Positions 1,181-41,804 of a stretch of DNA of 64,000 nucleotides are shown here, one piece after another. The notes below the pieces were generated by a model. That model saw nothing but the letters and a program-made list of their open reading frames with translations. It searched no databases and was not told where the DNA came from. Source of the DNA: Alphaproteobacteria bacterium (GTDB taxonomy: Bacteria > Pseudomonadota > Alphaproteobacteria > UBA828); contig CBDEUP010000007.1 in the NCBI GenBank assembly GCA_965243315.1, positions 2,343,500-2,407,499 on the forward strand. Reading direction: 5' to 3'. The position numbers were made by a program, and so were the translations under genes. Each line of letters opens with the position of its first letter. Within the stretch, counting starts at the first letter, position 1.

Positions 1181-3256
<2,076 letters not shown>

Positions 3257-3301
3257 TTGCGTGACCACGACCAAGAAAAGACCTCCTGAGAGAGAGCACC
3301 G

Positions 3302-4492
3302 ATGGCCAAGGAGAAGTTTGAGCGTACGAAGCCGCACTGCAACGTTGGGACGATTGGTCATGTTGACCATGGCAAGACGACGTTGACGGCGGCGATTACG
3401 AGGGTTCTGGGCGAAGCAGGCGGCGCGGAGTTCGTGTCGTTTGACGAGATCGACAAGGCGCCGGAGGAACGCGAGCGCGGGATCACGATCGCGACCGCGC
3501 ATGTCGAGTACGAGACGGCGAACCGCCACTACGCGCACGTGGACTGTCCGGGCCATGCGGACTACGTGAAGAACATGATCACGGGTGCGGCGCAGATGGA
3601 TGGCGCGATCCTGGTCGTGTCTGCGGCGGACGGCCCGATGCCTCAGACGCGGGAGCATATTCTGCTTGCGCGTCAGGTGGGCGTTCCCGCGCTGGTGGTC
3701 TACATGAACAAGGTGGATATGGTGGACGACGAGGAGATCCTGGACCTTGTCGAGCTTGAGGTTCGGGAGCTTCTGTCCGCGTACGAGTTTCCGGGCGACG
3801 ACATTCCTGTGATCCGTGGGTCTGCGCTGGCGGCGCTCGAGGGTGGCGACGCGGCGACGGGCCGAGGCTCGGTCCTGGAGCTGATGGCGGCGGTTGACGA
3901 CTACGTACCGCAGCCCGAGCGCCCGAAGGATCAGCCGTTCCTGATGCCGATCGAGGACGTGTTCTCGATTTCGGGTCGTGGGACGGTTGTGACGGGTCGG
4001 ATCGAGCGCGGCGTTGTGAAGGTGGGCGACGACGTCGGGATCATCGGCATCCGCGAGACGACGAAGACGGTCTGCACGGGCGTCGAGATGTTCCGGAAGC
4101 TGCTGGATCAGGGCGAGGCCGGCGACAACGTGGGCGTCCTGCTTCGAGGAACGAAGCGGGACGAGGTTGAGCGCGGCCAGGTGTTGGCGGAGCCCGGGAC
4201 GATCACGCCGCACACGCGATTTGAGGCAGAGACGTACATCCTGACGAAGGACGAGGGCGGGCGTCACACGCCGTTTTTCTCGAACTACCGCCCACAGTTT
4301 TACTTCCGGACGACGGACGTGACGGGGACGATTGGGTTGCCGGAGGGCACCGAGATGGTGATGCCCGGCGACAACGTGACGATGCAGGTCGATCTGATAG
4401 CGCCGATCGCGATGGACGAGGGCTTGCGCTTCGCCATCCGCGAGGGCGGGCGCACCGTCGGCGCAGGCGTCGTCGCCAAAATCGTCGAGTAG
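3302..4492 (+). CDS. tuf: elongation factor Tu
   Basis: 396-aa ORF with [18 protein letters not shown] and NKVD motifs. Follows fusA. Confidence 0.98.
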
Positions 4493-4529
4493 AGCCAAAC
4501 CGAGGCGGACAAGAGGCCGGGCACGCACG

Positions 4530-4844
4530 ATGGCCATCGACAGCCAAAACATCAGGATCCGCCTCAAGGCGTTCGATCACCGGGTGCTCGACGCGTCCAC
4601 GAGCGAGATCGTGAACACGGCCAAGCGCACCGGCGCGCAGGTGCGCGGCCCGATCCCGCTGCCGACCCGGATCGAGAAGTACACGGTGCTGCGCTCGCCC
4701 CATATCGACAAGAAGTCGCGGGAGCAGTTCGAGATTCGCACCCATAAGCGGCTGCTCGATATCGTCGATCCCACGCCGCAGACCGTCGATGCGCTCATGA
4801 AGCTCGACCTCGCGGCCGGCGTCGACGTCGAGATCAGGCTTTAG
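4530..4844 (+). CDS. rpsJ: 30S ribosomal protein S10
   Basis: 104-aa [17 protein letters not shown]...[11 protein letters not shown] is the S10 pattern. First gene of the S10 operon order. Confidence 0.97.
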
Positions 4845-16063: not shown

Positions 16064-16750
16064 ATGCCCCGCAAGAGACTGACGCATTTAATGGCGCGGC
16101 GCGCGATCATCGACGCCGCCCTCAGGACCGACGCAATCGGCCTCAATCACGGGACCGCAGGCAACATCGGATTCCGGGTGGGCAAGAGGTTCCTGGTCAC
16201 GCCCTCCGGTCTCTATTACGACACGATGACGCCCGCCGACATCGTCGAGATGGATCTTGAGGGCCGCCAGTGGGGCACGCGAATCCCCACCAGCGAATGG
16301 CGCTTCCATCGCGATATCTTCGCCTCGCGGCCGGATGTGAACGCGATCCTCCACAGTCATTCGGTTCATTGCACCGCGCTCGCCGTGCACGGGATGGAGA
16401 TTCCGGCTGTTCACTACATGGTAGGAACCGCGGGAGGCACAAACATCCGCTGCGCGCCCTACCGCACGCCCACGACCCAGGCGCTCTCCGACGTGGCTGT
16501 CGAGGCGCTCAAGGACCGACGCGCCTGCCTGCTACAGAATCACGGCGCCATCGTCCTGGGCGAGACGCCGGATGACTGCGTCAACCTGCTCATCGAGGTC
16601 GAGTATCTGGCGGAGCTCTATTGCCGCTCGCTGACCATCGGCGCTGCCACTGGCAAGGAGCCAAAGGTCATCTCACAGCGCAAGATGGCCGAGGTGCTGG
16701 AGATGTTGAAGACCTACGGCCAGCAGCCCGACCCAGACAGCGCGGGGTAG
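16064..16750 (+). CDS. class II aldolase/adducin-domain protein
   Basis: 228-aa ORF. Fuculose-phosphate-aldolase-like pattern: ...GNIGFRV..., ...NAILHSHSVHCTALAV..., ...LLQNHGAIVLG.... Confidence 0.85.
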   Translation: MPRKRLTHLMARRAIIDAALRTDAIGLNHGTAGNIGFRVGKRFLVTPSGLYYDTMTPADIVEMDLEGRQWGTRIPTSEWRFHRDIFASRPDVNAILHSHSVHCTALAVHGMEIPAVHYMVGTAGGTNIRCAPYRTPTTQALSDVAVEALKDRRACLLQNHGAIVLGETPDDCVNLLIEVEYLAELYCRSLTIGAATGKEPKVISQRKMAEVLEMLKTYGQQPDPDSAG

Positions 16751-16832
16751 GGAGAGCGCCGGCCCACTCCGCCGGCACGTGTCAGCCACCGCCAATCAGA
16801 CCGTTTGCCCGCCGTACCGCCGCGAGGAACTC

Positions 16833-17270
16833 ATGGACCACGAGACAGACGCGCACGGCATCCCGATAACAGCGCTCCGGCAGGACCACGCCTTCAAGGC
16901 GGTCGATGATTACAACGTCCGCATGTACATCCTGCCGCACCTGGCCGACCCCGAGAGCCGCGCCAGGATCATCGCCGAGCACAAGGCCAATCCGCTCTAC
17001 CGCCCGACCCGGCCGGGGGAGCCCGCGCCGATCTACAGCCAAGTCCTGGTCCGCCTGATCGACAAGCTCCGCGTGGTGCCGACTGCGGGCAAGCACATCA
17101 TCGTCGAGACCGAGCCCGGCAGCGAATACACCATCGCGCTGCTGCCGGAAGTGCGCGGCGAGACCGTCGTGCTCACCGAGGAAACCTACGCGACAAGGGG
17201 CGAGGCCGACCACGCGATCTTCCTCAAGCGTCTGCGGGCGCTGCTCGCCAGCTACGGCATCGAGATGTAG
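16833..17270 (+). CDS. hypothetical protein; positional candidate for the small subunit of the DMFase-like enzyme
   Basis: ATG at 16833 is preceded by GAGGA. 145 aa ending 12 nt before the large-subunit-like gene. I recognise no motif. The ORF track starts it at 16779. Confidence 0.6.
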   Translation: MDHETDAHGIPITALRQDHAFKAVDDYNVRMYILPHLADPESRARIIAEHKANPLYRPTRPGEPAPIYSQVLVRLIDKLRVVPTAGKHIIVETEPGSEYTIALLPEVRGETVVLTEETYATRGEADHAIFLKRLRALLASYGIEM

Positions 17271-17282
17271 GAGCGCGATCTG

Positions 17283-19676
17283 ATGAGCGACAAGCAGGAC
17301 CGCATGCTCCGCATTACCGGCTACTCGGACCGCCTCTCGGTCCGGCCGGGCGAGGCCATCACCTTCTACGTCCATTCCGAAGAGGACGAGGCCTACGAGG
17401 CGCAGATCGTGCGCCTGATTCACGGCGACACGAGCCCCGAAGGGCCGGGCTTCAAGGAGGAGCCAGTCGAGGCGGCCGTGAACGGCGCGTGTCCCGGCGC
17501 GCATCAGCGGATCGACGCCGGCAGCTACGTCATCGTGCCCCACGACGAGCGGCTCGCGGTCGAGAGCTTCACGCTTTGCACCTACGTTTATCCGACGCTG
17601 CCGGCGCTCGGGATGCAGGGCCTGCTCACCAAGTGGAACGAGGCGGACGGCACGGGATACGGCCTCTTCATCGACGAAAACGCCACGGTCTGCCTGCGGA
17701 TTGGCCGGGGCGCCGGCGCCGAGGAGCGTGTCTCCTGCGAGCGCCCGCTCTTCCGCAACGTCTGGTATCAGGTGACCGCCGCCTACGATGCGGCGAGCGG
17801 GCGTGTCCGGCTGGTCCAACGGCCCTGGGTGACGCAGGCCAACGGTGGCTTCGGCATGAGCCTGATCCATCCGCTGGAGGACACGACGGCCGAGGTCGAA
17901 ACACACGTCAAACCCGGCGCGCCGGCGCCCAACGCCTGCCCCTTCCTGATGGCCGCGAGCGTGGCCGAGCTGGACTCGGGCCGCAGCATCTTCGGCGCCC
18001 ACTTTGCGGGGCTCGCCGAGCCCTGGCCGATCCCGATCCATACCCACAAGTTCAACGGCAGGCTGGATCGCCCCAAGCTCGCAAACCGCGCACTGACGCA
18101 GGCGGAGATCGACGCCCTCCTCGCCGGTGCCGGCATCGACCATCTGCCGCTCGCTGCCCGCGACCCCGTCATCGGCGCCTGGGATTTCACCGCCAACATC
18201 CGGGACAACGCGGCCTCCACAGAGATCGTCGACACGGGCCCGTTCGCGCTCCACGGCCGCGGCGTCAACATGCCGGTCCGCGCCATGCCGGGGTTCAACT
18301 GGACCTCGGACACCATGAGCTATCGCCACGGGCGGGACGAATACGGGGCCATCCACTTCCACGACGAGTCGGTCGACGACGCGCGCTGGGAGCCCGCCTT
18401 CACCTTCACGATGCCGGACGACCTGAAGAGCGGTGTCTATGCCGCGCGGCTTCGGATTGGCGGCGTCGAATCGCCCGAGACCGAGGACTATCTGCCCTTC
18501 TTCGTCCGCCCGCCTGCGAGCGGGCCCACCGCGCGCATCGCGCTGGTGATGTCGACGGTGAGCTATCTCGCCTACGCCAACGACAATCTGGGCGTGACCT
18601 CTCCCGTCGCCCAGCTGCTTACCGCCCGCGCGCCGATGCTGCAGCCGAGCGATCTGCTGCTGAACAAGAAGGAAGCCTACGGCCTCGGCACCTATTCAAC
18701 CTATCGGGACGGCTGGGGCGTAAACATCTCGTCGGCGCTCCGCCCGATCCTCAACATGCGGCCCAAATACTCGCACCTGTTCTCGCCCTCGGTCTGGCAG
18801 TTCAACGCGGACCTGCATCTGGTCGATTGGCTGGAGGCGTTGGGCTACGCGGTCGACATCCACACCGAGGAGGACGTGCATCGGGAGGGTGTCGGCTTGC
18901 TCGGCCAGTACCGCGTGGTTCTGACCGCCCACCACCCTGAGTACGTCTCGGAACGGATGATGGACGCGTTCCAGGAGTACCAGCTCCGGGGCGGGCGCTG
19001 GCTCTATCTCGCGGCCAACGGCTTCTATTGGGTGACCGAGTTCCATCCGGAAAACCCGAACCTCGTCGAGGTGCGGAAGGGCGATCAGGGCTCGCGCGCC
19101 TGGACCGGCATGCCCGGCGAATACTGCAACGCCTTTGATGGCAAGCACGGCGGCGCGTGGCGCATCCGCGGGCGGCCGATGGCGAACCTGCTGGGTGTGA
19201 CCTTCACCTCGTTCGGGCTGACGCAGTCCTCCTACTACCGCCGCGCGCCGGACAGCGAGCGGGAGGAATGTGCCTGGATCTTCGAGGGCGTCGGCCGCGA
19301 CGAGCCCATCGGCGACTTCGGGCTGATCGGCGGCGGTGCCGCGGGCCTTGAGCTGGACCGCGCCGACCTGGAGCTCGGCACACCCCACCGCGCCTTCCTG
19401 CTGGCCCATTCGGAGGGCCATTCCGACATCTTCGTGCCGGTGACCGAGGAGATCACCTACTCATCCCGCGGTCAGCTCCTCACCGGCACCGGCGAGAGCA
19501 ACCCGAAGATCCGGGCGGACATGGTGTACTTCAAGACGCCGCAGGAGGGCGCGGTCTTCTCCGTCGGCTCGATGGCCTGGTGCGGCTCGCTCTCCCACAA
19601 CGGATACGACAACAACGTCTCCCGCATCACCAGGAACGTGATCGACGGCTTCCTGCGCGACGGCCCGTTACCGTAA
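17283..19676 (+). CDS. N,N-dimethylformamidase large (beta) subunit-like protein
   Basis: 797-aa ORF. The N-terminal region looks LamG/concanavalin-like (...[27 protein letters not shown]...[18 protein letters not shown]...). The C-terminal half resembles the DMFase large-subunit family from recollection (...[17 protein letters not shown]...[11 protein letters not shown]...[12 protein letters not shown]...). Confidence 0.7.
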
Positions 19677-19749
19677 CGCGAACGTGATTGAACGGCCTCC
19701 GACCTGCGGATACCATCGCGGCAGGGCTGAGAACGGGGGATCACCGACT

Positions 19750-20358
19750 ATGGCACACGATCACGCCCACAACGCTCCGCCATCCGAGACGGCGATGAGG
19801 GTCAAGGCCCTGGAGACGCTCCTCACCGAGAAGGGCCTGCTCGACCCCGCCGCCATCGACGCATTGGTGGAGACCTACGAGACGAAGATCGGCCCGCGCA
19901 ACGGCGCCAAGGTGGTGGCACGGGCGTGGACCGACCCGGATTACAAGCAAAGGCTGCTTGAGGACGGGAGCGCGGCGATCGCCGAGCTCGGCTTCAGCGG
20001 CGTGCAGGGCGAGGACATGATCGTCGTCGAGAACACCGATGACGTGCACAACCTGGTCACATGCACGCTCTGCTCCTGCTATCCGTGGCCGACGCTCGGG
20101 CTGCCGCCCATCTGGTTCAAGAGCGCCCCCTACCGGGCTCGCTCGGTCATCGACCCGCGCGGGGTGCTCGAGGAATTCGGCGTCGAGGTCTCCGACGATA
20201 TCGAGATACGGGTGTGGGACAGCAGCGCCGAGCTCCGCTACCTGGTGCTGCCGCAGCGGCCTGCGGGGACGGAAGGCCTGAGCGAGGACGAGCTGGCGGC
20301 GTTAGTGACCCGCGATTCCATGATCGGCACGGCGCTGGTCGAAGCGCCCGCGAGCTGA
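19750..20358 (+). CDS. nthA: nitrile hydratase alpha subunit, cobalt type
   Basis: ATG at 19750 follows GGGGGA. 202 aa. The metal site [11 protein letters not shown] (codons 20062-20079) is the Co-type CTLCSC motif. ...[22 protein letters not shown]... is typical NHase alpha. Confidence 0.92.
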
Positions 20359-20385
20359 CCAGCCGGTTCCGAAGGGAGCACAGCG

Positions 20386-20700
20386 ATGAACGGAATCCAC
20401 GACATGGGCGGCATGCAGTGCATGGGCCCGATTATTCGTGAGGAAAATGAGCCCCGGTTCCACGAGGAGTGGGAAGGTCGGGTCTTCGGTATGTTCTTCA
20501 CCAACTTCGCCGAAGGCCACTTCAACGTGGACATGTTCCGCCACGCCATCGAGCGGATGGGCCCGGCCGAGTACCTGGAGACCTCGTATTACGAGCACTG
20601 GCTGCACGTCTACGAGACTGTGCTGGTGGAACGGGGCATCCTGACCCAGGCCGAGATCGACGAGAAGATCGCGAGCCTTCGCGAAGCGGGAGAGTCGTGA
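20386..20700 (+). CDS. nthB: nitrile hydratase beta subunit, N-terminal half as a separate ORF
   Basis: 104 aa. MNGIHDMGGM...EPRFHEEWEGRVFGM...YYEHWL is the canonical NHase-beta N-terminus. The TGA stop at 20698-20700 overlaps the next ATG. Confidence 0.88.
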   Translation: MNGIHDMGGMQCMGPIIREENEPRFHEEWEGRVFGMFFTNFAEGHFNVDMFRHAIERMGPAEYLETSYYEHWLHVYETVLVERGILTQAEIDEKIASLREAGES

Positions 20701-21053
20701 TGCCAACTCTGACGCCTGACATGGTTCCGGGCCTGGTCGCCGGCGGCGCGTCCTGCCGTATGGATGTGGACGTCGCACCGAAGTTCAAGGTCGGCGACAC
20801 GGTCAAGGCCCGCGACATCAATCCCGTGTCTCACACCCGGCTGCCGCGTTATATCCGGGGCAGAACCGGACGGATCGAGCGCGATCACGGCGTCTTCGCG
20901 TTCCCGGACACCTCGGCCGCATCGGGCACCCACAGCGACCCTCAGCACGTTTATAGCGTGCGGTTCGAGGGGAGCGAGCTCTGGGGCAACCACGCGAACG
21001 CGAACGCCTGCGTCTACATCGATCTCTTCGACGACTATCTCGACAGTGCATGA
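20700..21053 (+). CDS. nthB: nitrile hydratase beta subunit, C-terminal half as a separate ORF
   Basis: ATG at 20700 (TGATG overlap). 117 aa. ...KFKVGDTVKARDINPVSHTRLPRYIRGRTGRIERDHGVFAFPDT...YSVRFEGSELWG matches the NHase-beta C-terminal SH3-like domain. Confidence 0.85.
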   Translation: MPTLTPDMVPGLVAGGASCRMDVDVAPKFKVGDTVKARDINPVSHTRLPRYIRGRTGRIERDHGVFAFPDTSAASGTHSDPQHVYSVRFEGSELWGNHANANACVYIDLFDDYLDSA

Positions 21054-21427
21054 GCGCTGCGGAATCGGCTGACGACCTGCCGCAGCTTCCCTGGGACGCC
21101 GAAGACGGGCCGGTCTTCAAGGAGCCGTGGGAGGCGACCGCCTTCGCCATGGCGGTCCGGCTGTCGGAGGCCGGCAAGTTCACCTGGTCGGAGTGGGTCG
21201 ACTACCTCTCTGCCGAGATCGCCGCGGCGAAACGGAGAGGCGATCCCGATCTAGGCGACCGCTATTACGAGCACTGGCTGAGCGCGCTTGAGAAGCTGGT
21301 GATCGACAAGGGGCTCGGGTCCGAAGCGGAGCTTGCCAACCTCAAGCATGACTGGACCGAAGCAACCATCCACACTCCCCACGGCCAACCCATCGGGTTG
21401 AAGAAGCGCACGCCGTCCGGCCAATAG
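21050..21427 (+). CDS. nitrile hydratase accessory (activator) protein-like
   Basis: 125 aa. 4-nt overlap with the preceding gene. ...PVFKEPWEATAFAMAVRLSEAGKFTWSEW...YYEHWLSALEKL... resembles the beta-homologous NHase activator family. Confidence 0.8.
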   Translation: MSAAESADDLPQLPWDAEDGPVFKEPWEATAFAMAVRLSEAGKFTWSEWVDYLSAEIAAAKRRGDPDLGDRYYEHWLSALEKLVIDKGLGSEAELANLKHDWTEATIHTPHGQPIGLKKRTPSGQ

Positions 21428-21487
21428 AGAAAGTGACGCTACTTCCCTGATACGATTGCGCCATCCGGCGCAGCGAGGAGACGACAA

Positions 21488-22672
21488 GTGCCAGGACCGC
21501 TCGACGGCTACCGCGTCATCGACCTCACGTCGATGGTCTCGGGCCCCTTCGCCACGATGATGCTGGGCGACCAGGGCGCCGAGGTGATCAAGGTGGAGGC
21601 CATCGGCCAGGGCGATCACACGCGCACCGGCAGCAACCGCTCCAACGGGCTCGCCTCGGGCTTTCTGAACGTCAACCGCAACAAGCGCTCGATCGCTGTC
21701 AACCTGAAGGACCCGCGCGGTCGCGACGCCGTGATCCGTCTCGCGGAGAGTGCCGACGTCTTCATCCAGAACTTCCGGCCGGGCGTTGTCGAGCGACTGG
21801 GAGTCGCTGAGCCCGACATCCGGGCCGCCAACCCCGAGATCGTCTACGTCTCGATCAACGGCTTCGGAGAGACCGGCCCCTACGCGGACAAGCGCGTCTA
21901 CGACCCGATCATCCAGGCCGCGTCGGGGCTGGCCTCGGTCCAGGGCGGCTCGGACGATGCGCGTCCCCGTCTCGTGCGCACCATCCTGCCCGACAAGCTG
22001 ACGGGTGTGACCGCAGCCCAGGCCGTCACCGCAGCGCTTCTCGCGCGCGAGCGCACGGGCCAGAGCCAGCACGTGCGCCTCTCCATGCTCGATGCCGTGG
22101 TCTCGTTCCTCTGGGCGTCGGACATGGGCGGCCAGACCTTCCTGGAGCAGGCGCCGACGGAGCAGCGGGCGGCGAGCTTCATCGACCTGATCTACGAGAC
22201 CAAGGACGGCCACATGAGCGTGGCAGTCATGAGCGACCGAGAGTGGGTCGGGCTCACGCGCGCGCTGGAGCGGCCCGAATGGCTGGAGGACGCGCGTTTC
22301 AGGACGCCGGCGCTGCGCGATGAGAATATCGACGATCGCCTCTCGCTCACCCAGGAGGTGCTGCGAACCCGGACCACCGACGAGTGGATGGAGCGGCTGG
22401 AGGCCGAGGGCGTGCCCTGCGCGCCGGTGCTGACTAGGACCGCGCTGGTGGAGCACCCGCAAGTCGCTGCCGCCGGCACGCTGGTCGAGCTCGATCATCC
22501 CGTCGCAGGCAAGATGCGCCAGGCGCGGCCGGCGGCGCGCTTCGAGACGACGCCGAGTTCCATCCGCCGCGGCGCACCGATGCTCGGCGAGCACACGGGG
22601 GAGCTGCTCGCCGAGGCCGGGCTATCCGCAAGTGAGATCGCCGCGCTGCACGAGGCCGGCGTCGTCGCCTGA
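21488..22672 (+). CDS. family III CoA-transferase (CaiB/BaiF-like)
   Basis: 394 aa. GTG start after GAGGAG. The N-terminus PLDGYRVIDLTSMVSGPFATMMLGDQGAEVIKVE is typical of the family. Confidence 0.88.
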   Translation: MPGPLDGYRVIDLTSMVSGPFATMMLGDQGAEVIKVEAIGQGDHTRTGSNRSNGLASGFLNVNRNKRSIAVNLKDPRGRDAVIRLAESADVFIQNFRPGVVERLGVAEPDIRAANPEIVYVSINGFGETGPYADKRVYDPIIQAASGLASVQGGSDDARPRLVRTILPDKLTGVTAAQAVTAALLARERTGQSQHVRLSMLDAVVSFLWASDMGGQTFLEQAPTEQRAASFIDLIYETKDGHMSVAVMSDREWVGLTRALERPEWLEDARFRTPALRDENIDDRLSLTQEVLRTRTTDEWMERLEAEGVPCAPVLTRTALVEHPQVAAAGTLVELDHPVAGKMRQARPAARFETTPSSIRRGAPMLGEHTGELLAEAGLSASEIAALHEAGVVA

Positions 22673-22688
22673 GTTTCATGGTTTCCAT

Positions 22689-24233
22689 ATGAGCTGGGAG
22701 AAGGAGGTCGAGGAGCTCGCGCAGAAGCGCGCGCTCGCCCAGGCGCAGGGCGGAGAGGAGGGAGTCGCCCGTCAGCACGCGAGAGGGCTGCTCACGATCC
22801 GCGAACGGATCGACGCCATGCTCGATGGCGGCTCATTTCAGGAGCTGGGCGGTGCCTCGGGTGACGCGACTTGCGACGGAGACGGGCGGCTCGTCGACTT
22901 CTCGCCGGCGAACTTCGTGCTCGGCTTCGGCACGGTCGACGGGCGCCGTTGCGTGATTGGCGGCGAGGATTTCACCCTCCGGGGCGGCTCGCCCAACGAG
23001 GCGGGCCTACGCAAGAGCGTCTATGCGGAGGAGCTCGCCTGCACCTACCGCGTGCCGTTGGTGCGCCTGCACCAGGGCGCGGGCGGAAGCGTCGCCGGCT
23101 CCGGCTCCAAGACGGTGGGCACGCCGGTCAACGCCCCGCCGCGCTTCGCCTCCGTGGCGCGTGCGATGGCGACCGTGCCGGTCGCCTCGGCGGGGCTCGG
23201 CGCGGTCGCGGGCTTGCCGGCGGCGCGCCTGGTGGCCTCGCACTTCTCGGTGATGACCGAAACGACGCAGGTGCTGGTCGCTGGCCCCGCCGTGGTCGAG
23301 CGCGCGCTCGGCCGCCGCCCGAGCAAGGAGGCGATGGGCGGCCCGGAGGTGCATGCCAGGAACGGCGTCGTCGATAATCTGGTGGCGGACGAGCAGGCAG
23401 CTTTCGCCGAGATTCGCCGCTTCCTGAGCCACCTGCCACCGAATGTCTGGGATCTCCCGCCTTGCACGGCGACCAACGATCCGTCTGACCGGTGCGCCGA
23501 AGAGCTGATCGAGATCGTGCCGCGCAACCGGCGAAAGCTCTACGACATGCGGCGCGTGATTGCGCTGACGCTGGACGAGGGCTCCTTCTTCGAGATGGGG
23601 CGGCTCTACGGGCAGGGCACAATCACCGGCCTCGCCCGGCTCTCGGGCCAACCGGTCGGCGTGCTCGCCAACGACTGCTGGCACCTGGCCGGCGCCATGA
23701 CCGCAGCGGGCTCCCAGAAGACGCGCCGCTTCATAGAGCTCTGCGACACGTTCCACTTGCCCATCGTGAGCCTGGTCGACGAGCCCGGCTTCATGCTGGG
23801 CACGGAGGCGGAGAAGGCCGGCACGATCCGCTTCGGCGCAGCCGCCGTGTTGGCGGCGGCGAGCTCGGTGGTGCCCTGGGCGTCGGTGATCGTGCGCAAG
23901 GCACACGGCGTCGCCGTGGCCGCACATTTCGGCCCGGACGGCTTCGTCGTCGCCTGGCCTTCCGCCGAGATGGGCGCGCTGCCGGTCGAGGGCGGCGTGG
24001 CGGTGGCCTTCGGCCGCCAGATCGCCATGGCGGACGACCCCAAAGCCGAACGCGAGCGGCTCGAGGAGGAGATGTTGGAACGGCAGTCCCCGGTGCCGCG
24101 CGCGGAGAGTTTTTCCTTCCACGACCTCATCGACCCGCGCGAGACCCGCCCCGTGCTCTGCGACTGGATCGCCCGCGTCCAGCCTCTGCTGCCTCGCCTC
24201 AAGGGCCCGACGAGCTTTCCCGTGCGGCCTTAG
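22689..24233 (+). CDS. carboxyltransferase-domain protein (acyl-CoA carboxylase beta / acyl-CoA decarboxylase alpha family)
   Basis: ATG at 22689 gives 514 aa. ...ARGLLTIRERIDAMLDGGSFQELG...VIGGEDFTLRGGS... and a second half ...ITGLARLSGQPVGVLAND...FIELCDTFHLPIVSLVDEPGF... match the two-domain carboxyl_trans pattern. Confidence 0.85.
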   Translation: MSWEKEVEELAQKRALAQAQGGEEGVARQHARGLLTIRERIDAMLDGGSFQELGGASGDATCDGDGRLVDFSPANFVLGFGTVDGRRCVIGGEDFTLRGGSPNEAGLRKSVYAEELACTYRVPLVRLHQGAGGSVAGSGSKTVGTPVNAPPRFASVARAMATVPVASAGLGAVAGLPAARLVASHFSVMTETTQVLVAGPAVVERALGRRPSKEAMGGPEVHARNGVVDNLVADEQAAFAEIRRFLSHLPPNVWDLPPCTATNDPSDRCAEELIEIVPRNRRKLYDMRRVIALTLDEGSFFEMGRLYGQGTITGLARLSGQPVGVLANDCWHLAGAMTAAGSQKTRRFIELCDTFHLPIVSLVDEPGFMLGTEAEKAGTIRFGAAAVLAAASSVVPWASVIVRKAHGVAVAAHFGPDGFVVAWPSAEMGALPVEGGVAVAFGRQIAMADDPKAERERLEEEMLERQSPVPRAESFSFHDLIDPRETRPVLCDWIARVQPLLPRLKGPTSFPVRP

Positions 24234-31201: not shown

Positions 31202-32572
31202 ATGGAAATGGCATTGAGGAACGGATTGCGTCGCGGCATGAGCGGAGTGCTGGCTGCGGCAGTGGTTGCCGGCGGGCTTTCGGTGGCGGCCACGACGACT
31301 TTCACCAGCGGCGAGGCTCAGGCGCAGGACGAGCAGTTCATTCCCCTGCTCGTCTACCGGACCGGGCCTTACGCGCCCAACGGCATTCCAGCCGCGAACG
31401 GCGCGCTCGACTATTACACGCTGATCAACGAACGCGACGGCGGGGTCAACGGCGTCGCGCTCGCCTTCGAGGAGTGCGAGTACCGCTACGACACGAAGCT
31501 CGGCGTCGAGTGCTACGAACGCCTCAAGAACCAGGGGCCGACGGGGGCGTCAATCGTCATGCCGCTGTCCACTGGCGTGACTTATCAGCTCAACCCGAGG
31601 GCGCCGGTTGACCAGATTCCGGTGCACTCCATGGGTTACGGGCAGACGGCGGCCTCGGACGGGCGCGTCTTCCCGTGGACCTTCACCTTCCCCACCACGT
31701 ACTGGAGCCAGGCTTCGGCCTTCATCAAGTTCGTGGGTGCCGAGGAAGGCGGCATGGAGAATCTGGCGGGTAAGACGATCGCGCTGATCTACCACAACAG
31801 CCCCTACGGCAAGGAGCCGATCCCCACCCTTCAGGTGCTGGCGGAGAAGTTCGGCTACACGCTCGAGCTGCTTCCGGTCGACCATCCGGGGCAGGAGCAG
31901 CGGGCGACCTGGCTGCAGATTCGCAAGATCAGGCCCGACTGGACCTTCCTGTGGGGCTGGGGCGTGATGAACCAGGTCGCGCTCAAGGAAGCCGCCGCCA
32001 TCGCCTATGACATGAATCGTCTGATCGGCGTGTGGTGGTCTTCCAGCGAGTCCGACGTGGTACCGGCCGGCGACGATGCCATCGGCTATCGGGGCGGCTC
32101 GTTCCACTCGCCGGGCGCGGGCTTCGCGCTCCACGACGAGATCCTGCAGAGCCTCTACGGCGGCGACGCGGCGGCAGCGGCTGAGAAGAACTTCGGCGAA
32201 GTTCTCTACAACCGCGGGCTCCTCAGCTCCGTCTACACCACCGAGGCGATCCGCACCGCTCAGGCCAAGTACGGCAACCGGCCGCTCACCGGCGAAGAGG
32301 TGCGCTGGGGTCTGGAGAACCTCGACCTGACCGAGGAGCGGCTGGCGGAGCTCGGCCTCGCCGGCTTCACCCCGCCGGTGAAGATCACCTGCGAGGACCA
32401 TGAGGGCAACGGCCCCGTGATCATCCAGCAGTGGGACGGTGAGAACTGGAACATCGTCAGTGACTGGATCGAGCCCATGCAGGATGTCGTGCGCCCGATG
32501 ATCGAGGCGGCGGCAGCCCAGTACGCGGAGGAGAACAACATCACCCCGCGCGACTGCTCGCAGGAGATGTGA
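31202..32572 (+). CDS. ABC transporter substrate-binding protein (type I, branched-chain-amino-acid/amide family)
   Basis: 456 aa with a signal-like N-terminus (...VLAAAVVAGGLSVAATTTFTSGEAQAQ). First gene of a five-gene ABC operon. SD spacing favours the second ATG at 31208. Confidence 0.85.
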   Translation: MEMALRNGLRRGMSGVLAAAVVAGGLSVAATTTFTSGEAQAQDEQFIPLLVYRTGPYAPNGIPAANGALDYYTLINERDGGVNGVALAFEECEYRYDTKLGVECYERLKNQGPTGASIVMPLSTGVTYQLNPRAPVDQIPVHSMGYGQTAASDGRVFPWTFTFPTTYWSQASAFIKFVGAEEGGMENLAGKTIALIYHNSPYGKEPIPTLQVLAEKFGYTLELLPVDHPGQEQRATWLQIRKIRPDWTFLWGWGVMNQVALKEAAAIAYDMNRLIGVWWSSSESDVVPAGDDAIGYRGGSFHSPGAGFALHDEILQSLYGGDAAAAAEKNFGEVLYNRGLLSSVYTTEAIRTAQAKYGNRPLTGEEVRWGLENLDLTEERLAELGLAGFTPPVKITCEDHEGNGPVIIQQWDGENWNIVSDWIEPMQDVVRPMIEAAAAQYAEENNITPRDCSQEM

Positions 32573-33385
32573 CGCTACAATCGGAGAGTGTGGCCGGGGG
32601 TGGCGGCGAGGAAACCGCTGCCACCCCTGAGGCCCTGCTGCGTCTCGACGCGGTCGAGGTCGTCTATGACCATGTGATCTCGGTCCTGCAGGGCGTCAGC
32701 ATCGCCGTCCCCGAAGGGGGGATCGTCGCCCTGCTGGGGCCGAACGGCGCCGGCAAGTCCACCACGCTCAAGGCGGTCTCCAACCTGTTGCGCGTTGAGC
32801 GGGGCGACATCACCGGGGGTCAAATCCACTTCCGGGGCGAGCGCATCGACAAGCTCGCGCCGGGCGACCTCGTGCGCCGCGGCATCATCCAGGTGATGGA
32901 GGGGAGGCGCTGCTTCCCCCATCTCACGGTGCACGAAAACCTGTTGACCGGCTCCTATACCAGGAAGGACGGCAAGGCGGCGGTAAGCGCCGATCTTGAG
33001 CGGGTCTATGCGCACTTCCCCGCCCTTGCCGAGCGGCGTCGCATTCTCGCGGGCTTCATCTCGGGCGGCGAGCAACAGATGCTCGCCATCGGCCGCGCGC
33101 TGATGTCGCGGCCAACCATGGTCCTGCTCGACGAGCCCTCCATGGGCCTGGCGCCGCAGGTGGTGGCTCGGATTTTCTCGGAGGTCCGCCTACTGAACCG
33201 GGAGGAGGGAGTCACGTTCCTGCTTGCCGAGCAGAACGCCAACGTGGCCCTCGGCGTGGCAGACTACGGCTACATCATGGACAGCGGCCAGATCGCCCTG
33301 GAGGGCACGGCGGCGGAGCTCCAGGGCAACCCGGCGGTGAGAGAGCACTATCTCGGCCTCTCGCACGCCGCTGAGGCTGAGTCGG

Positions 33386-33408
<23 letters not shown>
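32569..33408 (+). CDS. ABC transporter ATP-binding protein (LivF-like)
   Basis: 279 aa with Walker A GPNGAGKST, signature ISGGEQQML and Walker B VLLDEPS. The GTG start overlaps the upstream stop. Confidence 0.9.
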
Positions 33409-34209
<801 letters not shown>

Positions 34210-34213
<4 letters not shown>

Positions 34214-35148
34214 TGGAGTTTCTCTGGGACTTCTTCGTCGCGCCCTTCCTCGACATGATCGACTTCCCGATATTCCTGGCCGAGGTCGCGGTCTCCGGCC
34301 TGCTCACCGGCGTGATGTACTCGCTGGTGGCGCTCGGTTTCGTGCTCATCTTCAAGGCCTCGCAAGTGTTCAACTTCGCGCAGGGCGCGATGGTTCTGTT
34401 CGCCGCGCTCACCCTTGTGGGACTGATGGAGCACGGCGTCCCGGTCTGGGGCGCGCTGCCGGTCACGGCAATCGTCATGGTCGCGCTCGCCTTCGCGATC
34501 GAGCGCGGGATGCTGCGCCCGCTGATCAATCAGCCGCCGATCACGCTCTTCATGGCGACCATCGGGCTGAGCTTCCTGCTCGAAGGCGCTGGCGAATGGG
34601 TCTGGGGCTCCAACGTCAAGGCGCTTGACCTCGGCATCCCGAATTCGCCGGTCGATGTCGGTGGCATGCTGCTCAACGAATTCGATCTCATCGCCGCCCT
34701 GGTGGCGGCGGTGCTGGTGACGGCGCTGGCGTTGCTCTTCCAGCACACGCCCATGGGCCGCGCGCTCAGGGCGGTGGCCGACGATCCGCAGGCGGCGCTC
34801 TCTCTCGGTATCTCGCTCAGGACCATCTGGATCATCGTGTGGTCGGTGGCGGGGGTCGTCGCCATCGTCGCCGGTATCATGTGGGGCGCGAAGAGCGGTG
34901 TGCAGTTCAGCCTGTCGCTGATCGCGCTGAAGGCGCTGCCCGTGCTCATCCTGGGCGGGCTGACCTCGGTTCCCGGCGCGATCGTCGGCGGGCTCATCAT
35001 CGGCCTCGGCGAGAAGGTTGCCGAAGTCTATTGGGGTCCGGTGATCGGCGGCGCGATCGAAAACTGGTTCGCCTACATGCTGGCGATGCTGGTTCTCATG
35101 TTCCGGCCCCAGGGCCTGTTCGGCGAGAAGATCATCGAGCGGGTGTGA
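34210..35148 (+). CDS. ABC transporter permease (LivH-like)
   Basis: 312-aa hydrophobic ORF. 4-nt overlap with the upstream ATPase gene. Confidence 0.88.
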
Positions 35149-36200
35149 CTGTGCTCAGCTATTTCAACGACCTCTATGGCACCTTCTTCGCGACCCGTTC
35201 GCGCACGATCAATACCGTCTTCGTGACCGTGATCTCGTTGCTCGCGCTCTTCGCCGTTCCGACGCTCGCAAACGAATACTGGCTGCAGGCGATCCTGATT
35301 CCGTTCCTGATCTTCGCGCTCGCGGCGCTTGGGCTCAACCTGCTCACTGGCTTCGCCGGTCAACTCTCGCTCGGCACCGGCGGCTTCATGGCGGTCGGTG
35401 CCTACGCCGCCTTCAAGATGACGACCGCGTGGCCCGGCCTCGACATCATCTTGATCTTCTTCATCTCGGGCTTCTTCGCCGCCGGTGTCGGCATCCTGTT
35501 CGGGCTGCCGAGCCTGCGTATCAAGGGCTTCTACCTGGCGGTGGCGACGCTGGCAGCGCAGTTCTTCCTGATCTGGCTCTTCAACCGGGTGCCGTGGTTC
35601 TACAACGACAACCCGTCGGGTACGATCACGGCGCCGCCGCGCACCTTCGCAGGCGTCATGGTCACCGGGCCCGAGGCCGCCGCAGAGGTGCGCTATCTGG
35701 TGGCGCTCGTCTTGTTGGCGGTCTTCGTCTTCTTCTCCTGGAATCTGATGCGGAGCCGCTTCGGCCGTGCCTGGATGGCGGTGCGCGACATGGACGTGGC
35801 TGCCGAGATCGTCGGCATCCCGCTGCTCCGCACCAAGCTGCTCGCCTTCGGCGTGAGCTCCTATCTGTGCGGCGTCGCCGGCGCGCTCTTCGTCTTCCTC
35901 TATCTGGGCAGCGCCGAGACCATCGCCTTCGACGTCAACGTCTCCTTCCTCGTGCTCTTCATGATCATCGTGGGTGGCCTCGGCTCGATCACGGGCTCCA
36001 TCATCGGTGCCGCCTTCATCACCATCCTGCCGATCTTCCTGACCAATCTGAACCCGATCCTGGGCATCGACCTCGCCGTGGACCTCGCCAAGCATATCGA
36101 GGTCATCATCTTCGGCGGCCTGATCATCGTGATCCTGATCCTCGAGCCGCACGGCATGGCGCGCCTCATCCAGATCTCGCGAGAGCGCCTCCGCATTTAG
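35145..36200 (+). CDS. ABC transporter permease (LivM-like)
   Basis: GTG at 35145 overlaps the upstream stop (GTGA); 35151 is an alternative. About 351 aa, multi-TM, with ...LNLLTGFAGQLSLGTGGFMAVGAYA... typical of LivM-type permeases. The ORF-track N-terminus (34839) overlaps the previous gene and is rejected. Confidence 0.85.
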   Translation: MTVLSYFNDLYGTFFATRSRTINTVFVTVISLLALFAVPTLANEYWLQAILIPFLIFALAALGLNLLTGFAGQLSLGTGGFMAVGAYAAFKMTTAWPGLDIILIFFISGFFAAGVGILFGLPSLRIKGFYLAVATLAAQFFLIWLFNRVPWFYNDNPSGTITAPPRTFAGVMVTGPEAAAEVRYLVALVLLAVFVFFSWNLMRSRFGRAWMAVRDMDVAAEIVGIPLLRTKLLAFGVSSYLCGVAGALFVFLYLGSAETIAFDVNVSFLVLFMIIVGGLGSITGSIIGAAFITILPIFLTNLNPILGIDLAVDLAKHIEVIIFGGLIIVILILEPHGMARLIQISRERLRI

Positions 36201-36501: not shown

Positions 36502-37848
36502 TCAGCGGCCGCGCCGTTCCGGAATGATGCCGCGCGGGCTGAAGCGCATGACGACGAGCAGGATCAGCCCCATCACGATGAGGCGCATGTAGGCCGCACT
36601 GTCGAGCAGGTGGGCGCGGAGCGGGCTGTCCTCGGGCAGGCCGGCGGTGATCGCGTCCATCAGCCAGAAGCCGGCGGGCTCGGCCTCGACCCACACGAAC
36701 CAGACCAGGAAGCCGCCGAACACGGCGCCCCAGTTGTTGCCCGAGCCGCCGACGATCACCATCACCCAGACCAGGAAGGTGAAGCGGAGCGGCTGATAGC
36801 TGCCCGGCGTGAACTGCCCGTCGAGCGTGGTCAGCATGGCGCCCGCAATCCCCATTACCGCCGCGCCCAGCACGAAGATCTGCATGTGGCGCCGGGTCAC
36901 GTCCTTGCCCATCGCCGCCGCTGCGTCCTCGTTGTCGCGGATGGCGCGCATCATGCGCCCCCAGGGCGAGTTCAGCGCGCGCTCGGCGAGCCAGACGATC
37001 GCGATCAGGACCAGCGCGAACAGCACCGCGTAGCAGAGCTTCACGAAGATGCTGGAGCCCGTGATCGGGTCCGCGCCGAGCCAGTGCACCAGATCGAGAA
37101 ACCAGGCGCTCTGCTGCAGGTCGATCTCGTAGGGTACCGGCCGGTCGAGGCCCGTGACGTTCTTCACGCCGCGGCTGAGCCAATCCTCGTTCTTGATGAC
37201 GGTGATGACGATCTCGGCAATGCCGAGCGTGGCGATGGCGAAGTAATCGGAGCGCAGGCCGAGCGCGACCTTGCCGATGAGCCACGCAGCGCCGGCGGCG
37301 AGCAGACCGCCGACCGCCCAGGAGAGGATGATCGGCAGGCCGGCGCCGCCCAAATAGCCGGTGGTGGCGCTGTCGATGCGTTCGATGTCGTCCACCGCCG
37401 GGTCGAAGAAGATGCGGGCGATGAAGAAGCCGGCGACGAGGACGATCGCCGTCCCCGCTGTGCGTAGCAGCTTCCTCCGCACGAAGCGGCGCAGCAGGAC
37501 GATCAGCAGCGCGGCGGCCACCACCACCGCGAGCGCGATGCCGAGATCCGTGCCACCCGCCGACCATGCCTCCGCCACCGGCGACTGCGAGATGAGCACG
37601 CCGGCCAGGCCGCCGAGCGCGGCGAAGCCCATTACGCCGACGTTGAGCAGGCCGGCGTAGCCCCACTGCATGTTAAGGCCGAGAGCCATGATCGCGGAGA
37701 TCAGGCAGAGGTTGAGGATCGAGAGGCTGACCACCCACGACTGGCCGACCCCGACCGCGATCAGCAGCATTGCCATGCCAGCGAAGAGCAGCGGCGTGCG
37801 AAGCCTGGGCGTGCTGCGGAGCCAGGGCGCGTGGATCGGGGTCCTCAT
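36502..37848 (-). CDS. ABC transporter permease (LivM-like)
   Basis: 448-aa multi-TM ORF with ...LNMQWGYAGLLNVGVMGFAALGG.... Last gene of a five-gene - strand operon. Confidence 0.87.
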   Translation of the reverse strand: MRTPIHAPWLRSTPRLRTPLLFAGMAMLLIAVGVGQSWVVSLSILNLCLISAIMALGLNMQWGYAGLLNVGVMGFAALGGLAGVLISQSPVAEAWSAGGTDLGIALAVVVAAALLIVLLRRFVRRKLLRTAGTAIVLVAGFFIARIFFDPAVDDIERIDSATTGYLGGAGLPIILSWAVGGLLAAGAAWLIGKVALGLRSDYFAIATLGIAEIVITVIKNEDWLSRGVKNVTGLDRPVPYEIDLQQSAWFLDLVHWLGADPITGSSIFVKLCYAVLFALVLIAIVWLAERALNSPWGRMMRAIRDNEDAAAAMGKDVTRRHMQIFVLGAAVMGIAGAMLTTLDGQFTPGSYQPLRFTFLVWVMVIVGGSGNNWGAVFGGFLVWFVWVEAEPAGFWLMDAITAGLPEDSPLRAHLLDSAAYMRLIVMGLILLVVMRFSPRGIIPERRGR

Positions 37849-38861
37849 GACAGCACCCGCCCGCGGAAAATCCCGGTCGGGCGCACCAGCAGCACGACCA
37901 CCAGAATGACGAAGGAGATTGCGAGCTTGTAGTCGGTCGACAACAGCTGCATGAGCCCGCTCGGCTCCCAGCTCTCGGGCACCAGGTAGCGCAGGAACTT
38001 CTTGTAGGCGTATGTCACCGCGGTCTCGGAGAGTGCCACGATGAAGCCGCCGGCGACCGCGCCGATGGGGTGGCCGATTCCGCCCAGGATCGCCGAAGCG
38101 AAGATGGGCAGGAGCAGCTGGAAGTAGGTGAAGGGCTTATAGCTCTTGTCGATGCCGTACATGGTGCCGGCCACCGCAGCCAGGGTGGCGGCGATCAGCC
38201 AGGCGTAGAACACCACGCGGTCCGGGCTCACGCCCGATAGCAGCGCCAGGTCCTCGTTGTCAGAATAGGCGCGCATCGCCTTGCCGGCCCGCGTCCGGTG
38301 CAGGAACCAGAAGAGCGCGGCCACCGCGATCGCGGCGACGGCGAGTGTCAGCCCCTGCGAGAGCTTGATCGCGAGGCCTTCCTTCAGCCCGGTCGCGGCC
38401 TTGAATTCGGAGGCCTTGATGATGAAGCGCGCGCCGTCGGCGAGGCGCCGGTCGTCGGGGCCGATGATGAAGCGGACGATGCCTTGCAACGCGAACATCA
38501 CGCCGACCGAGGCGATCAACAGGATCACCGGCGGGCTCTTGCGCCGCCGGTAAAAGCGGAAGACGACGCGGTCCGCAGCCAAGTTGAAGGCGGCCGCGCC
38601 CACGATCCCAAAGGGCAAGGCGATGAGCGCCGTCGGCAGCGGCGCGATTCCGACGTCCATCCCCTGGAACCACCACGTGGTCAGCAGCACGACCATAGTG
38701 CCGAACGCCATCACGTCGCCGTGGGCGAAATTGGCGAAGCGCAGGATACCGAAGATCAGCGTGACCCCGAGGGCACCGAGGGCGAGCTGAGAGCCATAGG
38801 CGACGCCCGGCACGATGACGAAATTCAGCAGCAGGACAATCGCGTTCGCGACGTCGGTCAT
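37845..38861 (-). CDS. ABC transporter permease (LivH-like)
   Basis: 338-aa hydrophobic ORF. 4-nt overlap with the downstream permease gene. Confidence 0.87.
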   Translation of the reverse strand: MTDVANAIVLLLNFVIVPGVAYGSQLALGALGVTLIFGILRFANFAHGDVMAFGTMVVLLTTWWFQGMDVGIAPLPTALIALPFGIVGAAAFNLAADRVVFRFYRRRKSPPVILLIASVGVMFALQGIVRFIIGPDDRRLADGARFIIKASEFKAATGLKEGLAIKLSQGLTLAVAAIAVAALFWFLHRTRAGKAMRAYSDNEDLALLSGVSPDRVVFYAWLIAATLAAVAGTMYGIDKSYKPFTYFQLLLPIFASAILGGIGHPIGAVAGGFIVALSETAVTYAYKKFLRYLVPESWEPSGLMQLLSTDYKLAISFVILVVVLLVRPTGIFRGRVLS

Positions 38862-38864
38862 GGG

Positions 38865-39569
38865 CTACCGGCCGAGGAACGAACGTCGGACTTCGGGGTC
38901 GGCGAGGAGCGCCTCGCCGGTGTCCGTGTGGCGGTTCTGGCCGGTGACGAGCACATAGCCGCGATCGGCGATGGTAAGCGCCTGGGCGGCGTTCTGCTCG
39001 ACCATCAGGATGGCGATGCCGGTCGCGCGGATCTCCAAGATGCGGTCGAAGAGATCGTCCATGACGACGGGCGAAACGCCGGCGGTGGGCTCGTCCAGCA
39101 TGAGCAGCCGGGGCTCGGTCATCAGCGCCCGGCCGATGGCCACCTGCTGGCGCTGGCCGCCGGAAAGCTCGCCGGCGGATTGGCGCCGCCTCTCCTTCAG
39201 GATCGGGAAGAGGTCGAAGACCCGCGCCATGGTGTCGGCCACACCGACGTCGCGGATGTAGGCGCCCATCTCCAGGTTTTCCTGAACGGTCATGGTGGTG
39301 AAGACGTTGCGCTCCTGCGGCACGAAGCCCATGCCCTTGCGCACGCGCTCCTGCGGGCTGAGCCGGGTGATGTCCTCGCCGTCGAGCCGGACCGTGCCCT
39401 CCCTCAGCACGATCATGCCGAAGACCGCCTTCATCGCGGTCGATTTGCCCGCGCCGTTGGGCCCAACGATGACCGCGACCTCGCCCTGCTCGGCCTCGAT
39501 GGTGCAGTCGCGGATGATGTCCGCGCCGCCATAGCCGCCAGACATGCCTTCGCCAGTGAGAAAGCTCAT
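38865..39569 (-). CDS. ABC transporter ATP-binding protein (LivF-like)
   Basis: 234 aa with Walker A GPNGAGKST, signature LSGGQRQQV and Walker B LMLDEPT. Confidence 0.9.
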   Translation of the reverse strand: MSFLTGEGMSGGYGGADIIRDCTIEAEQGEVAVIVGPNGAGKSTAMKAVFGMIVLREGTVRLDGEDITRLSPQERVRKGMGFVPQERNVFTTMTVQENLEMGAYIRDVGVADTMARVFDLFPILKERRRQSAGELSGGQRQQVAIGRALMTEPRLLMLDEPTAGVSPVVMDDLFDRILEIRATGIAILMVEQNAAQALTIADRGYVLVTGQNRHTDTGEALLADPEVRRSFLGR

Positions 39570-40405: not shown

Positions 40406-40438
40406 CGCTGCCCGAGCCGCCGTCCGTCATTGCGCGAT

Positions 40439-41647: not shown

Positions 41648-41804
41648 GATGCGTGCCTCCCTGTCCGAGGGTTGCGGCCGCACGCTCCAGCGATGGCGCG
41701 GTGCGCCGACCGGTTCGCAAATCATAGCGCGCTTTGACCGGTGTTTCGAACGGATTGGGTAATCGATTCATGCGTCGTGATCTGCGGTTGCCCTGGTTCG
41801 CGCG

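Follow-up and report, generated by a model that had tools for sequence, protein, structure and literature searches.

The question raised by the locus described here is whether nine tightly packed enzyme genes constitute one pathway. The genes are located at 16064-24233 of the window (the whole 64-kb stretch analysed, from the genome of an uncultured alphaproteobacterium), past the ribosomal-protein/secY/adk operon, and encode a nitrile hydratase (NHase), an aldolase-like protein, a protein pair of the dimethylformamidase (DMFase) family, a CoA-transferase and a carboxyltransferase. A sequence-only reading had joined them into a single route, in which a nitrile is converted to amide, acid and acyl-CoA, followed by a (de)carboxylation or aldol-type step. 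Comparison with related loci pointed to a different answer: with a probability of about 0.7, the cluster consists of four separable modules, each known by itself, that were brought together in one lineage, namely ald, dmfS-dmfL, the four NHase genes and coaT-cbxT. The features of the cluster are as follows.

16064-16750, + strand: ald, class II aldolase/adducin-family protein, 228 aa (PF00596 Aldolase_II, E 4.6e-52)
16833-17270, + strand: dmfS, DMFase-family small subunit, 145 aa (PDB 6lvb_B, E 1.6e-6)
17283-19676, + strand: dmfL, DMFase-family large subunit, 797 aa (PF20254 DMFA2_C, E 5.8e-91; 6lvb_A, 605 bits)
19688-19716, + strand: promoter-like element TTGAAC-17 nt-TACCAT, 34 nt 5' of the nhA ATG (comparative alignment)
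19750-20358, + strand: nhA, Co-type NHase alpha subunit, 202 aa (TIGR01323, 314.5 bits versus a cutoff of 249.85)
20386-20700, + strand: nhB1, N-terminal half of NHase beta, 104 aa (PF21006 NHase_beta_N, E 2.8e-38)
20700-21053, + strand: nhB2, C-terminal half of NHase beta, 117 aa (PF02211 NHase_beta_C, E 4.8e-35)
21050-21427, + strand: nhAct, NHase accessory/activator protein, 125 aa (TIGR03889, 95.6 bits versus a cutoff of 46)
21456-21473, + strand: GC-rich hairpin TTGCGCC-N4-GGCGCAG in the nhAct-coaT spacer, without a T-run
21488-22672, + strand: coaT, family III CoA-transferase, 394 aa (PF02515 CoA_transf_3, E 1.5e-112)
22689-24233, + strand: cbxT, acyl-CoA carboxyltransferase similar to PccB/MmdA, 514 aa (PF01039 Carboxyl_trans, E 2.7e-90)

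Strong matches were obtained for the nine co-directional genes in Pfam, NCBIfam and PDB searches, which upheld the identifications made from the sequence alone; the 145-aa open reading frame (ORF) that had been listed without a name was the DMFase small subunit. The successive junctions from ald to cbxT measured 82, 12, 73, 27, -1, -4, 60 and 16 nt, in agreement with the range of -4 to +82 nt given for the nine + strand ORFs before, and the GC content at third codon positions of the coding frame (GC3) was 0.81 to 0.91 in all nine genes. The ald product matched FucA-type NCBIfam models, every one under cutoff (209 bits versus 264).

An nhA scan of species-representative genomes yielded 80 loci, and the window proteins were mapped onto all of them. 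The closest NHase loci belonged to metagenome-assembled genomes (MAGs) labelled Alphaproteobacteria, Rhodospirillales or Defluviicoccus, and four synteny types were distinguished. Type A, with all nine genes in order, was found in L008, L009, L011 and L018, and partially in L012; type B, with the same order without dmfS and dmfL, in L010 (truncated after nhB2), L014, L019 and L032, together with L091 from a metagenome scan; type C, in which the NHase genes are convergent with ald-adk-secY about 3 kb away and coaT and cbxT are lacking, in L013, L015 and L016; and type D, the four-gene NHase unit alone, in L017, L020-L031 and L033. The four NHase genes were the only constant unit across these types. 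In the neighbour-joining tree of NHase operons, type A was monophyletic and sister to type B, A+B was sister to C, and type D, with the amidase-bearing loci, branched deeper. The pair coaT-cbxT followed NHase in one monophyletic clade (A+B) only, and L010 lacked the DMFase cassette although its NHase grouped inside clade A, so that this cassette is dispensable even there. Because every adjacency can be placed at just one node of the NHase tree, the adjacencies provide no independent support for a common function, and no independent recurrence of DMFase, NHase, CoA-transferase and carboxyltransferase together in unrelated lineages was found in the surveyed loci. Co-conservation, for which a gene-neighbourhood survey had been recommended, failed when this survey was run over the 80 NHase loci, 83 loci holding cbxT relatives and seven DMFase loci; with the modules varying independently across related loci, the single route from nitrile to (de)carboxylation or aldol-type step was not borne out.

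The gene ald was located directly 3' of adk in types A, B and C, including the loci with NHase on the opposite strand. Since it follows adk even where NHase is inverted and about 3 kb off (L013, L015 and L016), its proposed membership in a nitrile pathway is not supported, and ald is, as judged from this arrangement, a predicted backbone gene tied to secY-adk.

The dmfS-dmfL pair, also taken before as a member of the pathway, was missing from the syntenic loci L010, L014, L019, L032 and L091. Alignment of type A with type B junctions showed a clean two-gene indel (dmfS-dmfL), its left edge about 35-45 nt past the ald stop and its right edge at the dmfL stop, with the sequence 5' of nhA kept in both types; no repeats or insertion-sequence remnants were present at the cassette edges in the aligned junctions. 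The DMFase neighbourhood sample consisted of seven loci in five distinct places. At 68-85% identity, relatives of dmfL kept the small subunit wherever upstream sequence was present and were flanked by genes for a 2-oxoglutarate oxygenase, a hydantoinase subunit, an enoyl-CoA hydratase or an ATP-binding cassette (ABC) transporter, and NHase was beside none of them. The order secY-adk-ald-dmfS-dmfL was common only to L005 (93% identity in dmfL) among the DMFase relatives examined. In L006, the dmfL orthologue (85% identity, 2243-4636) had a GC content of 58.6% versus 45.4% in the remainder of the contig, a contrast which indicates that this low-GC genome recently acquired the cassette by horizontal transfer. 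The dmfS-dmfL pair is a putative horizontally mobile two-gene cassette for a heteromeric Fe(III) amidohydrolase with an intact 2-Tyr-1-Glu iron site.

Membership of this pair in the DMFase family was supported by the arrangement of the two subunit genes, small (about 15 kDa in the family) and large (about 85 kDa), which lie next to each other with 12 nt between them. The dmfS orthologue of L005, 92% identical, carries PF26354 DMF_alpha, as do those of L006 and L001, and dmfS was placed directly 5' of the large subunit in every case. The arrangement as a small and large gene pair is shared with the DMFase of Paracoccus sp. DMF (6lvb), with whose large subunit (6lvb_A) dmfL aligned end to end at 605 bits, keeping all six positions aligned to Y399, Y440, E521, H519, N547 and E657. 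In that enzyme, Y399, Y440 and E521 are the iron ligands (2-Tyr-1-carboxylate) and H519 is described as essential, and mutation of Y440, E521, N547 or E657 disrupts or abolishes function (PMC7686228). Since the iron ligands and essential residues are kept, the dmfL product is probably an active Fe-dependent amidohydrolase, and the most likely reaction of DmfSL is the cleavage of a small N-substituted amide or a formamide, giving an amine and a small acid. The particular substrate is not inferable from the family, because its members include the acetamiprid amidase AceAB, which has no action on dimethylformamide, and N-acetyl-(R)-beta-phenylalanine acylase (8huy). The dmfL product is closer (63-70% identity) to a large uncharacterised group of 797-805 aa, including a homologue encoded by plasmid p1 of Aminobacter niigataensis DMFA1 (63%), than to the Paracoccus DMFase; unlike this group, the window cassette has no second small-subunit-like ORF and no ABC transporter gene 3' of dmfL. 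Such a second ORF was observed right 3' of the large subunit gene in L001 (3235-3660), L003 (12403-12846) and L171 (11412-11861), in relatives sharing 63-70% identity, one of them on plasmid p1 of strain DMFA1. DMFase-like and cbxT genes were also seen together without NHase in two other, different co-locations, L088 and L113. In L088 (1399-16618), an 85%-identical cbxT lies beside a CoA-transferase fragment, with genes nearby for an alcohol dehydrogenase (ADH), a GFA protein, a DMFase paralogue pair (42% identity), a SnoaL protein and a urease cluster, on a 4.06-Mb contig also holding the NHase locus L023.

The NHase genes showed the sequence features of a Co-type enzyme. The metal motif CTLCSC (within VTCTLCSC) of nhA was found at exactly 20062-20079, where it had been placed before, and the best full-length natural PDB match was the Co-type NHase alpha subunit 3qxe_A (323 bits); in addition to the alpha motif and score, both beta domains were present and an activator gene was located downstream. 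The genes nhB1 and nhB2 overlap by one base (TGATG, formed by the nhB1 stop and the nhB2 ATG). The full-length beta equivalog TIGR03888 was not reached (127.8 bits versus a cutoff of 152.2) because the two beta domains sit on separate ORFs. This split is not an error, since the junction was conserved in every aligned close relative, either as TGATG or as a stop followed by ATG within a few bases (TAATG also occurring), and beta-N and beta-C had an ORF each in 54 of the 78 related loci compared, in alpha- and gammaproteobacteria of many genera; a frameshift or pseudogene was thereby ruled out as its cause. Loci with split beta and an activator include those of Rhizobium, Mesorhizobium, Roseobacter, Azospirillum and gammaproteobacterial MAGs. 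Two further candidates were rejected: thiocyanate hydrolase, which also has a split beta, as its gamma model TIGR03887 gave 173.5 bits versus a cutoff of 291.45, and an ORF in another frame at 20764-21072 (102 aa) as the beta C-half, as it had no Pfam match, a GC3 of 0.63 and a GC content of 0.82 at second codon positions. In most of the 80 loci nhAct follows nhB2, being displaced or undetected in a few. On these features, nhA-nhB1-nhB2-nhAct is a predicted Co-type NHase operon that is complete in itself; its beta subunit is naturally split, and the enzyme would hydrate a nitrile to a primary amide.

Proteobacterial Co-type NHase operons such as those of Ensifer and Variovorax share with the window the VCTLCSC alpha motif, the order alpha-beta-activator and a TIGR03889-type accessory protein, and the closest solved structures are the Co-type entries 3qxe and 4ob1. 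In contrast to these operons, the window beta is divided between its N and C domains into two ORFs that are translationally coupled, and neither an amidase-signature amidase nor a cobalt transporter gene is adjacent, whereas deeper-branching loci have both. Three-subunit NHases have been reported from Streptomyces canus (AnhD/AnhE/AnhA) and from a plasmid of Microvirga flocculans, in which beta likewise occurs as separate N- and C-terminal polypeptides beside one alpha; the toyocamycin NHase ToyJKL is another. The gene orders differ, being alpha, beta-N, beta-C and activator in the window versus beta-N, beta-C and alpha without an activator in S. canus, while in Microvirga the alpha gene lies between the two beta genes.

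Upstream of nhA, a sequence of the form TTGAA(C/G/T)-spacer-TA(A/C/G)CAT was observed in 25 of 28 aligned regions belonging to all four synteny types, and it was kept whichever gene precedes nhA (dmfL, ald or others). The exceptions were L031 and L029, which differ, and L020, in which the -35 box is degenerate (GTGACA). In the window, TTGAAC-17 nt-TACCAT is followed by a GAGGGA-type ribosome-binding site, within 70 nt before nhA. A strict sigma-70 consensus scan over the cluster made no + strand call, this element included; its conservation fits a predicted NHase-specific promoter. The claim that no regulator gene adjoins the cluster was confirmed in a Pfam scan of the window ORFs.

The remaining two genes, coaT and cbxT, were compared mainly through 83 loci holding cbxT relatives, metagenome scan included. 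All NCBIfam equivalogs were under cutoff for coaT, whose best PDB matches were succinate-hydroxymethylglutarate CoA-transferase (240 bits) and formyl-CoA transferase; its predicted product is nearest to dicarboxylate-type members of family III. For cbxT, acyl-CoA carboxylase beta chains of PccB and AccD type in PDB gave about 250-270 bits, with every NCBIfam cutoff missed, and hundreds of homologues shared 60-96% identity. NHase was present in 1 of the 83 loci, the type B locus L091. A match to a 70-aa biotin carrier (Biotin_lipoyl) was found in 32 of the 83, directly 3' of cbxT in nearly all, and coaT was adjacent to cbxT in five, in either gene order, a biotin carrier being also nearby in three of these five. 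The coaT-cbxT pair occurred without NHase in L089, L098, L103 and L132, and on the 4.15-Mb chromosome record from which L020 comes it was located amid unrelated genes more than 1 Mb from NHase. In a search for a third partner, the neighbours of the cbxT family beyond the biotin carrier proved variable (short-chain dehydrogenase, enoyl-CoA hydratase, flavin monooxygenase-like protein, TauD and GFA among them). As the sequence-only reading had stated, no biotin partner was detected in the window: tblastn with the biotin carboxyl carrier protein (BCCP) encoded next to relatives of cbxT gave nothing better than E 0.5, and the biotin motif E[AS]MK[MLVI] was absent in every frame. Because the pair was found beside unrelated genes and far from NHase, coaT-cbxT is a predicted independent biotin-dependent module, the carrier being encoded outside the window; the probable role of the pair is to convert a dicarboxylic acid to its CoA thioester and to transfer the carboxyl group to or from biotin. 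The full two-lobed carboxyltransferase domain is shared with the PccB, MmdA and 12S subunits, and cbxT relatives at 60-77% identity are followed by the 70-aa biotinyl carrier. Unlike in those systems, the window yielded no gene for a biotin carrier, a biotin carboxylase or a subunit of a membrane decarboxylase, and cbxT is paired instead with a family III CoA-transferase. The hairpin in the nhAct-coaT spacer, which sits just 5' of the coaT Shine-Dalgarno sequence, was kept in most type A and B loci, with degenerate forms in L014 and L019; roles in attenuation, processing or transcript stability are conceivable for it.

Several observations weigh against regarding the cluster as a juxtaposition. 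The nine genes share one direction and no gap between them exceeds 82 nt; as the terminator scan predicted nothing on the + strand from adk to cbxT, they might be co-transcribed by read-through. The coaT-cbxT pair stands behind nhAct in every A or B locus extending far enough, the hairpin mostly with it; the genomes are closely related (secY 97-99% identical), so that a gene order common to them is hardly informative in either direction. That the modules are functionally coupled in this one lineage is conceivable at most. The position of dmfL, 73 nt before nhA on the same strand, is that taken by an amidase-signature amidase in many classical loci, and from this it might be supposed that a DMFase-family amidohydrolase has displaced the amidase as the partner of NHase, the two enzymes converting nitrile to amide and then to acid and ammonia or amine, with ald and coaT-cbxT as bystanders. 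Consistent with a displacement, and with the earlier statement that the usual amidase is not beside NHase, tblastn with an NHase-linked amidase from a sister locus found no amidase-signature (PF01425) amidase in the 64-kb window at E 1e-3; none was present in the 20-kb type A, B and C loci either, and among the top 120 homologues (cluster representatives) no close amidase orthologue was located on the large contigs of type A, B and C genomes, which is a weak argument. The intact catalytic residues of dmfL and the diverse substrates of its family (AceAB and the N-acetyl-beta-phenylalanine acylase) would also allow such a role. We nevertheless hold displacement to be unlikely. The cassette-less type B relatives, the type C loci, and L010 inside the closest clade all keep NHase without an adjacent amidase or DMFase; the adjacency of dmfSL and NHase arose once or is polymorphic; the promoter-like element stands between dmfL and nhA; characterised DMFase-family members cleave N-substituted amides and not the primary amides made by NHase; and there are four independent DMFase contexts without NHase. 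The classical pairing behaves differently. In 28 of the 80 loci, from several classes, NHase had an amidase orthologue as its neighbour, and this pairing is therefore independently conserved while the window combination is not; in many type D loci an amidase lies near NHase, in several together with the cobalt transporter CbtA, none of which was found in the window. The window resembles the classical clusters in having a co-directional hydrolase gene immediately 5' of nhA, but the hydrolase is of the DMFase family and not amidase-signature, and the pairing is limited to one shallow clade and dispensable within it. If displacement were true, a DMFase-like enzyme serving NHase would make a new nitrile-to-acid enzyme pair of biocatalysis interest. 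The homologues of the NHase-linked amidase were dominated by proteins of about 745-880 aa containing both Amidase and ABC_tran domains (81-82% identity), for example from Immundisolibacterales, which may be real fusions or gene-calling run-through.

An extended form, in which the DMFase-family enzyme would act as the NHase partner and coaT and cbxT would carry the product of a cyano-carboxylate or similar nitrile on into central metabolism, appears slightly less probable still; if true, NHase and amidase would be paired in a new way, and the DMFase family would gain a new class of substrates. Even more doubtful is a single pathway of all nine genes, or of dmfSL, NHase, coaT and cbxT, leading from a nitrile such as a cyano-carboxylate through an amide and a dicarboxylate to a dicarboxylyl-CoA that is then decarboxylated. 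Its chemistry is plausible because cbxT is nearest to the carboxyltransferases of acyl-CoA carboxylases and decarboxylases, and the affinity of coaT for dicarboxylate-type enzymes, the close co-directional packing without a predicted terminator and the persistence of coaT-cbxT behind nhAct throughout the two clades having the pair are in its favour. These are opposed by the independent variation of the modules, with ald tracking adk and not NHase, by the absence of NHase from 82 of the 83 cbxT-relative loci, where coaT-cbxT, or cbxT and a biotin carrier, occur on their own, by the lack of a biotin carrier in the window, by the promoter-like element of nhA itself and by the failure to find the combination recurring independently. 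A role in host chemistry was considered as well, since the bin labels RHO and APA of the closest MAGs presumably denote sponge metagenomes, an assumption made from the labels only; NHase and the DMFase-like enzyme would then act on sponge nitriles of the aeroplysinin-1 type or on terpene formamides, in detoxification or nitrogen scavenging. NHase activity toward aeroplysinin-1, originating from sponge or symbiont, has been reported in Aplysina (PMC3766881). That activity is Mn-dependent and associated with bands of 26 and 72 kDa whose peptides lack homology to known NHases (PMC3766881), data that misfit a Co-type enzyme with predicted subunits of roughly 22, 12 and 13 kDa; a link between the window NHase and the Aplysina enzyme was considered and rejected, as subunit sizes, metal dependence and peptide data disagree. 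By their titles and abstracts, most matches in a literature search for NHase and sponge appeared to concern other topics. This explanation, which presupposes that the window too comes from a sponge, seems very improbable.

A mosaic of separable modules therefore remains the preferred explanation, and a stepwise assembly can be proposed for it by parsimony on the NHase-operon tree, in which the deeper-branching clades carry an amidase. In the ancestor, NHase would have been accompanied by an amidase-signature amidase and CbtA; it would then have been relocated beside secY-adk-ald, losing the adjacent amidase; NHase would then have come next to coaT-cbxT in the A+B ancestor; and the mobile DMFase cassette would have been inserted between ald and nhA as the last event. 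We infer the direction of each event from this tree, and the functional independence of the modules from their separate distributions. Literature searches for NHase with dimethylformamidase, for dimethylformamidase with sponge and for strain DMFA1 returned no paper with this gene combination. The earlier remark that the combination matched no described pathway is to this extent correct; each module appears to be of an already known kind, and the combination, apparently not described in the literature searched, lacks support as a unit of function.

The window has a high GC content of about 67%. Upstream of the cluster are the ribosomal str, S10 and spc operons, ending with secY-adk, and downstream are a TPR-like gene and an MFS_4 gene on the - strand, followed by genes for SnoaL, an MFS transporter and two Liv-type ABC transporter sets. 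No rpsM, rpsK, rpoA or rplQ was found among the Pfam-scanned ORFs in the 48 kb after adk, and for this reason the region after adk looks like a rearrangement breakpoint in the lineage; in type C relatives an inversion was seen at the same region. The Liv-type (Peripla_BP_6) sets are divergent, at 31202-36200 (+ strand) and 36502-41725 (- strand), 7 kb past the cluster, and a Liv-type transporter also follows the DMFase genes in L001 and L171. At 58856-63979 (- strand) there is an ORF of 1707 aa with a single Calx-beta match and no other annotation; the stretch around it has 72-74% GC and a strongly negative GC skew. No Rfam element or riboswitch was detected in the window at gathering thresholds.

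These findings suggest caution in that a tight co-directional run of enzyme genes past a ribosomal operon looks like a new pathway, yet resolves into known modules, probably assembled step by step in a single lineage. Split-beta NHases with a dedicated activator, although experimental work has treated three-subunit NHases as rarities, are common in Proteobacteria, as seen in the majority of related loci, and the DMFase family, known from a degrader of a synthetic solvent, is abundant in uncultured marine bacteria, among which it appears to move horizontally.

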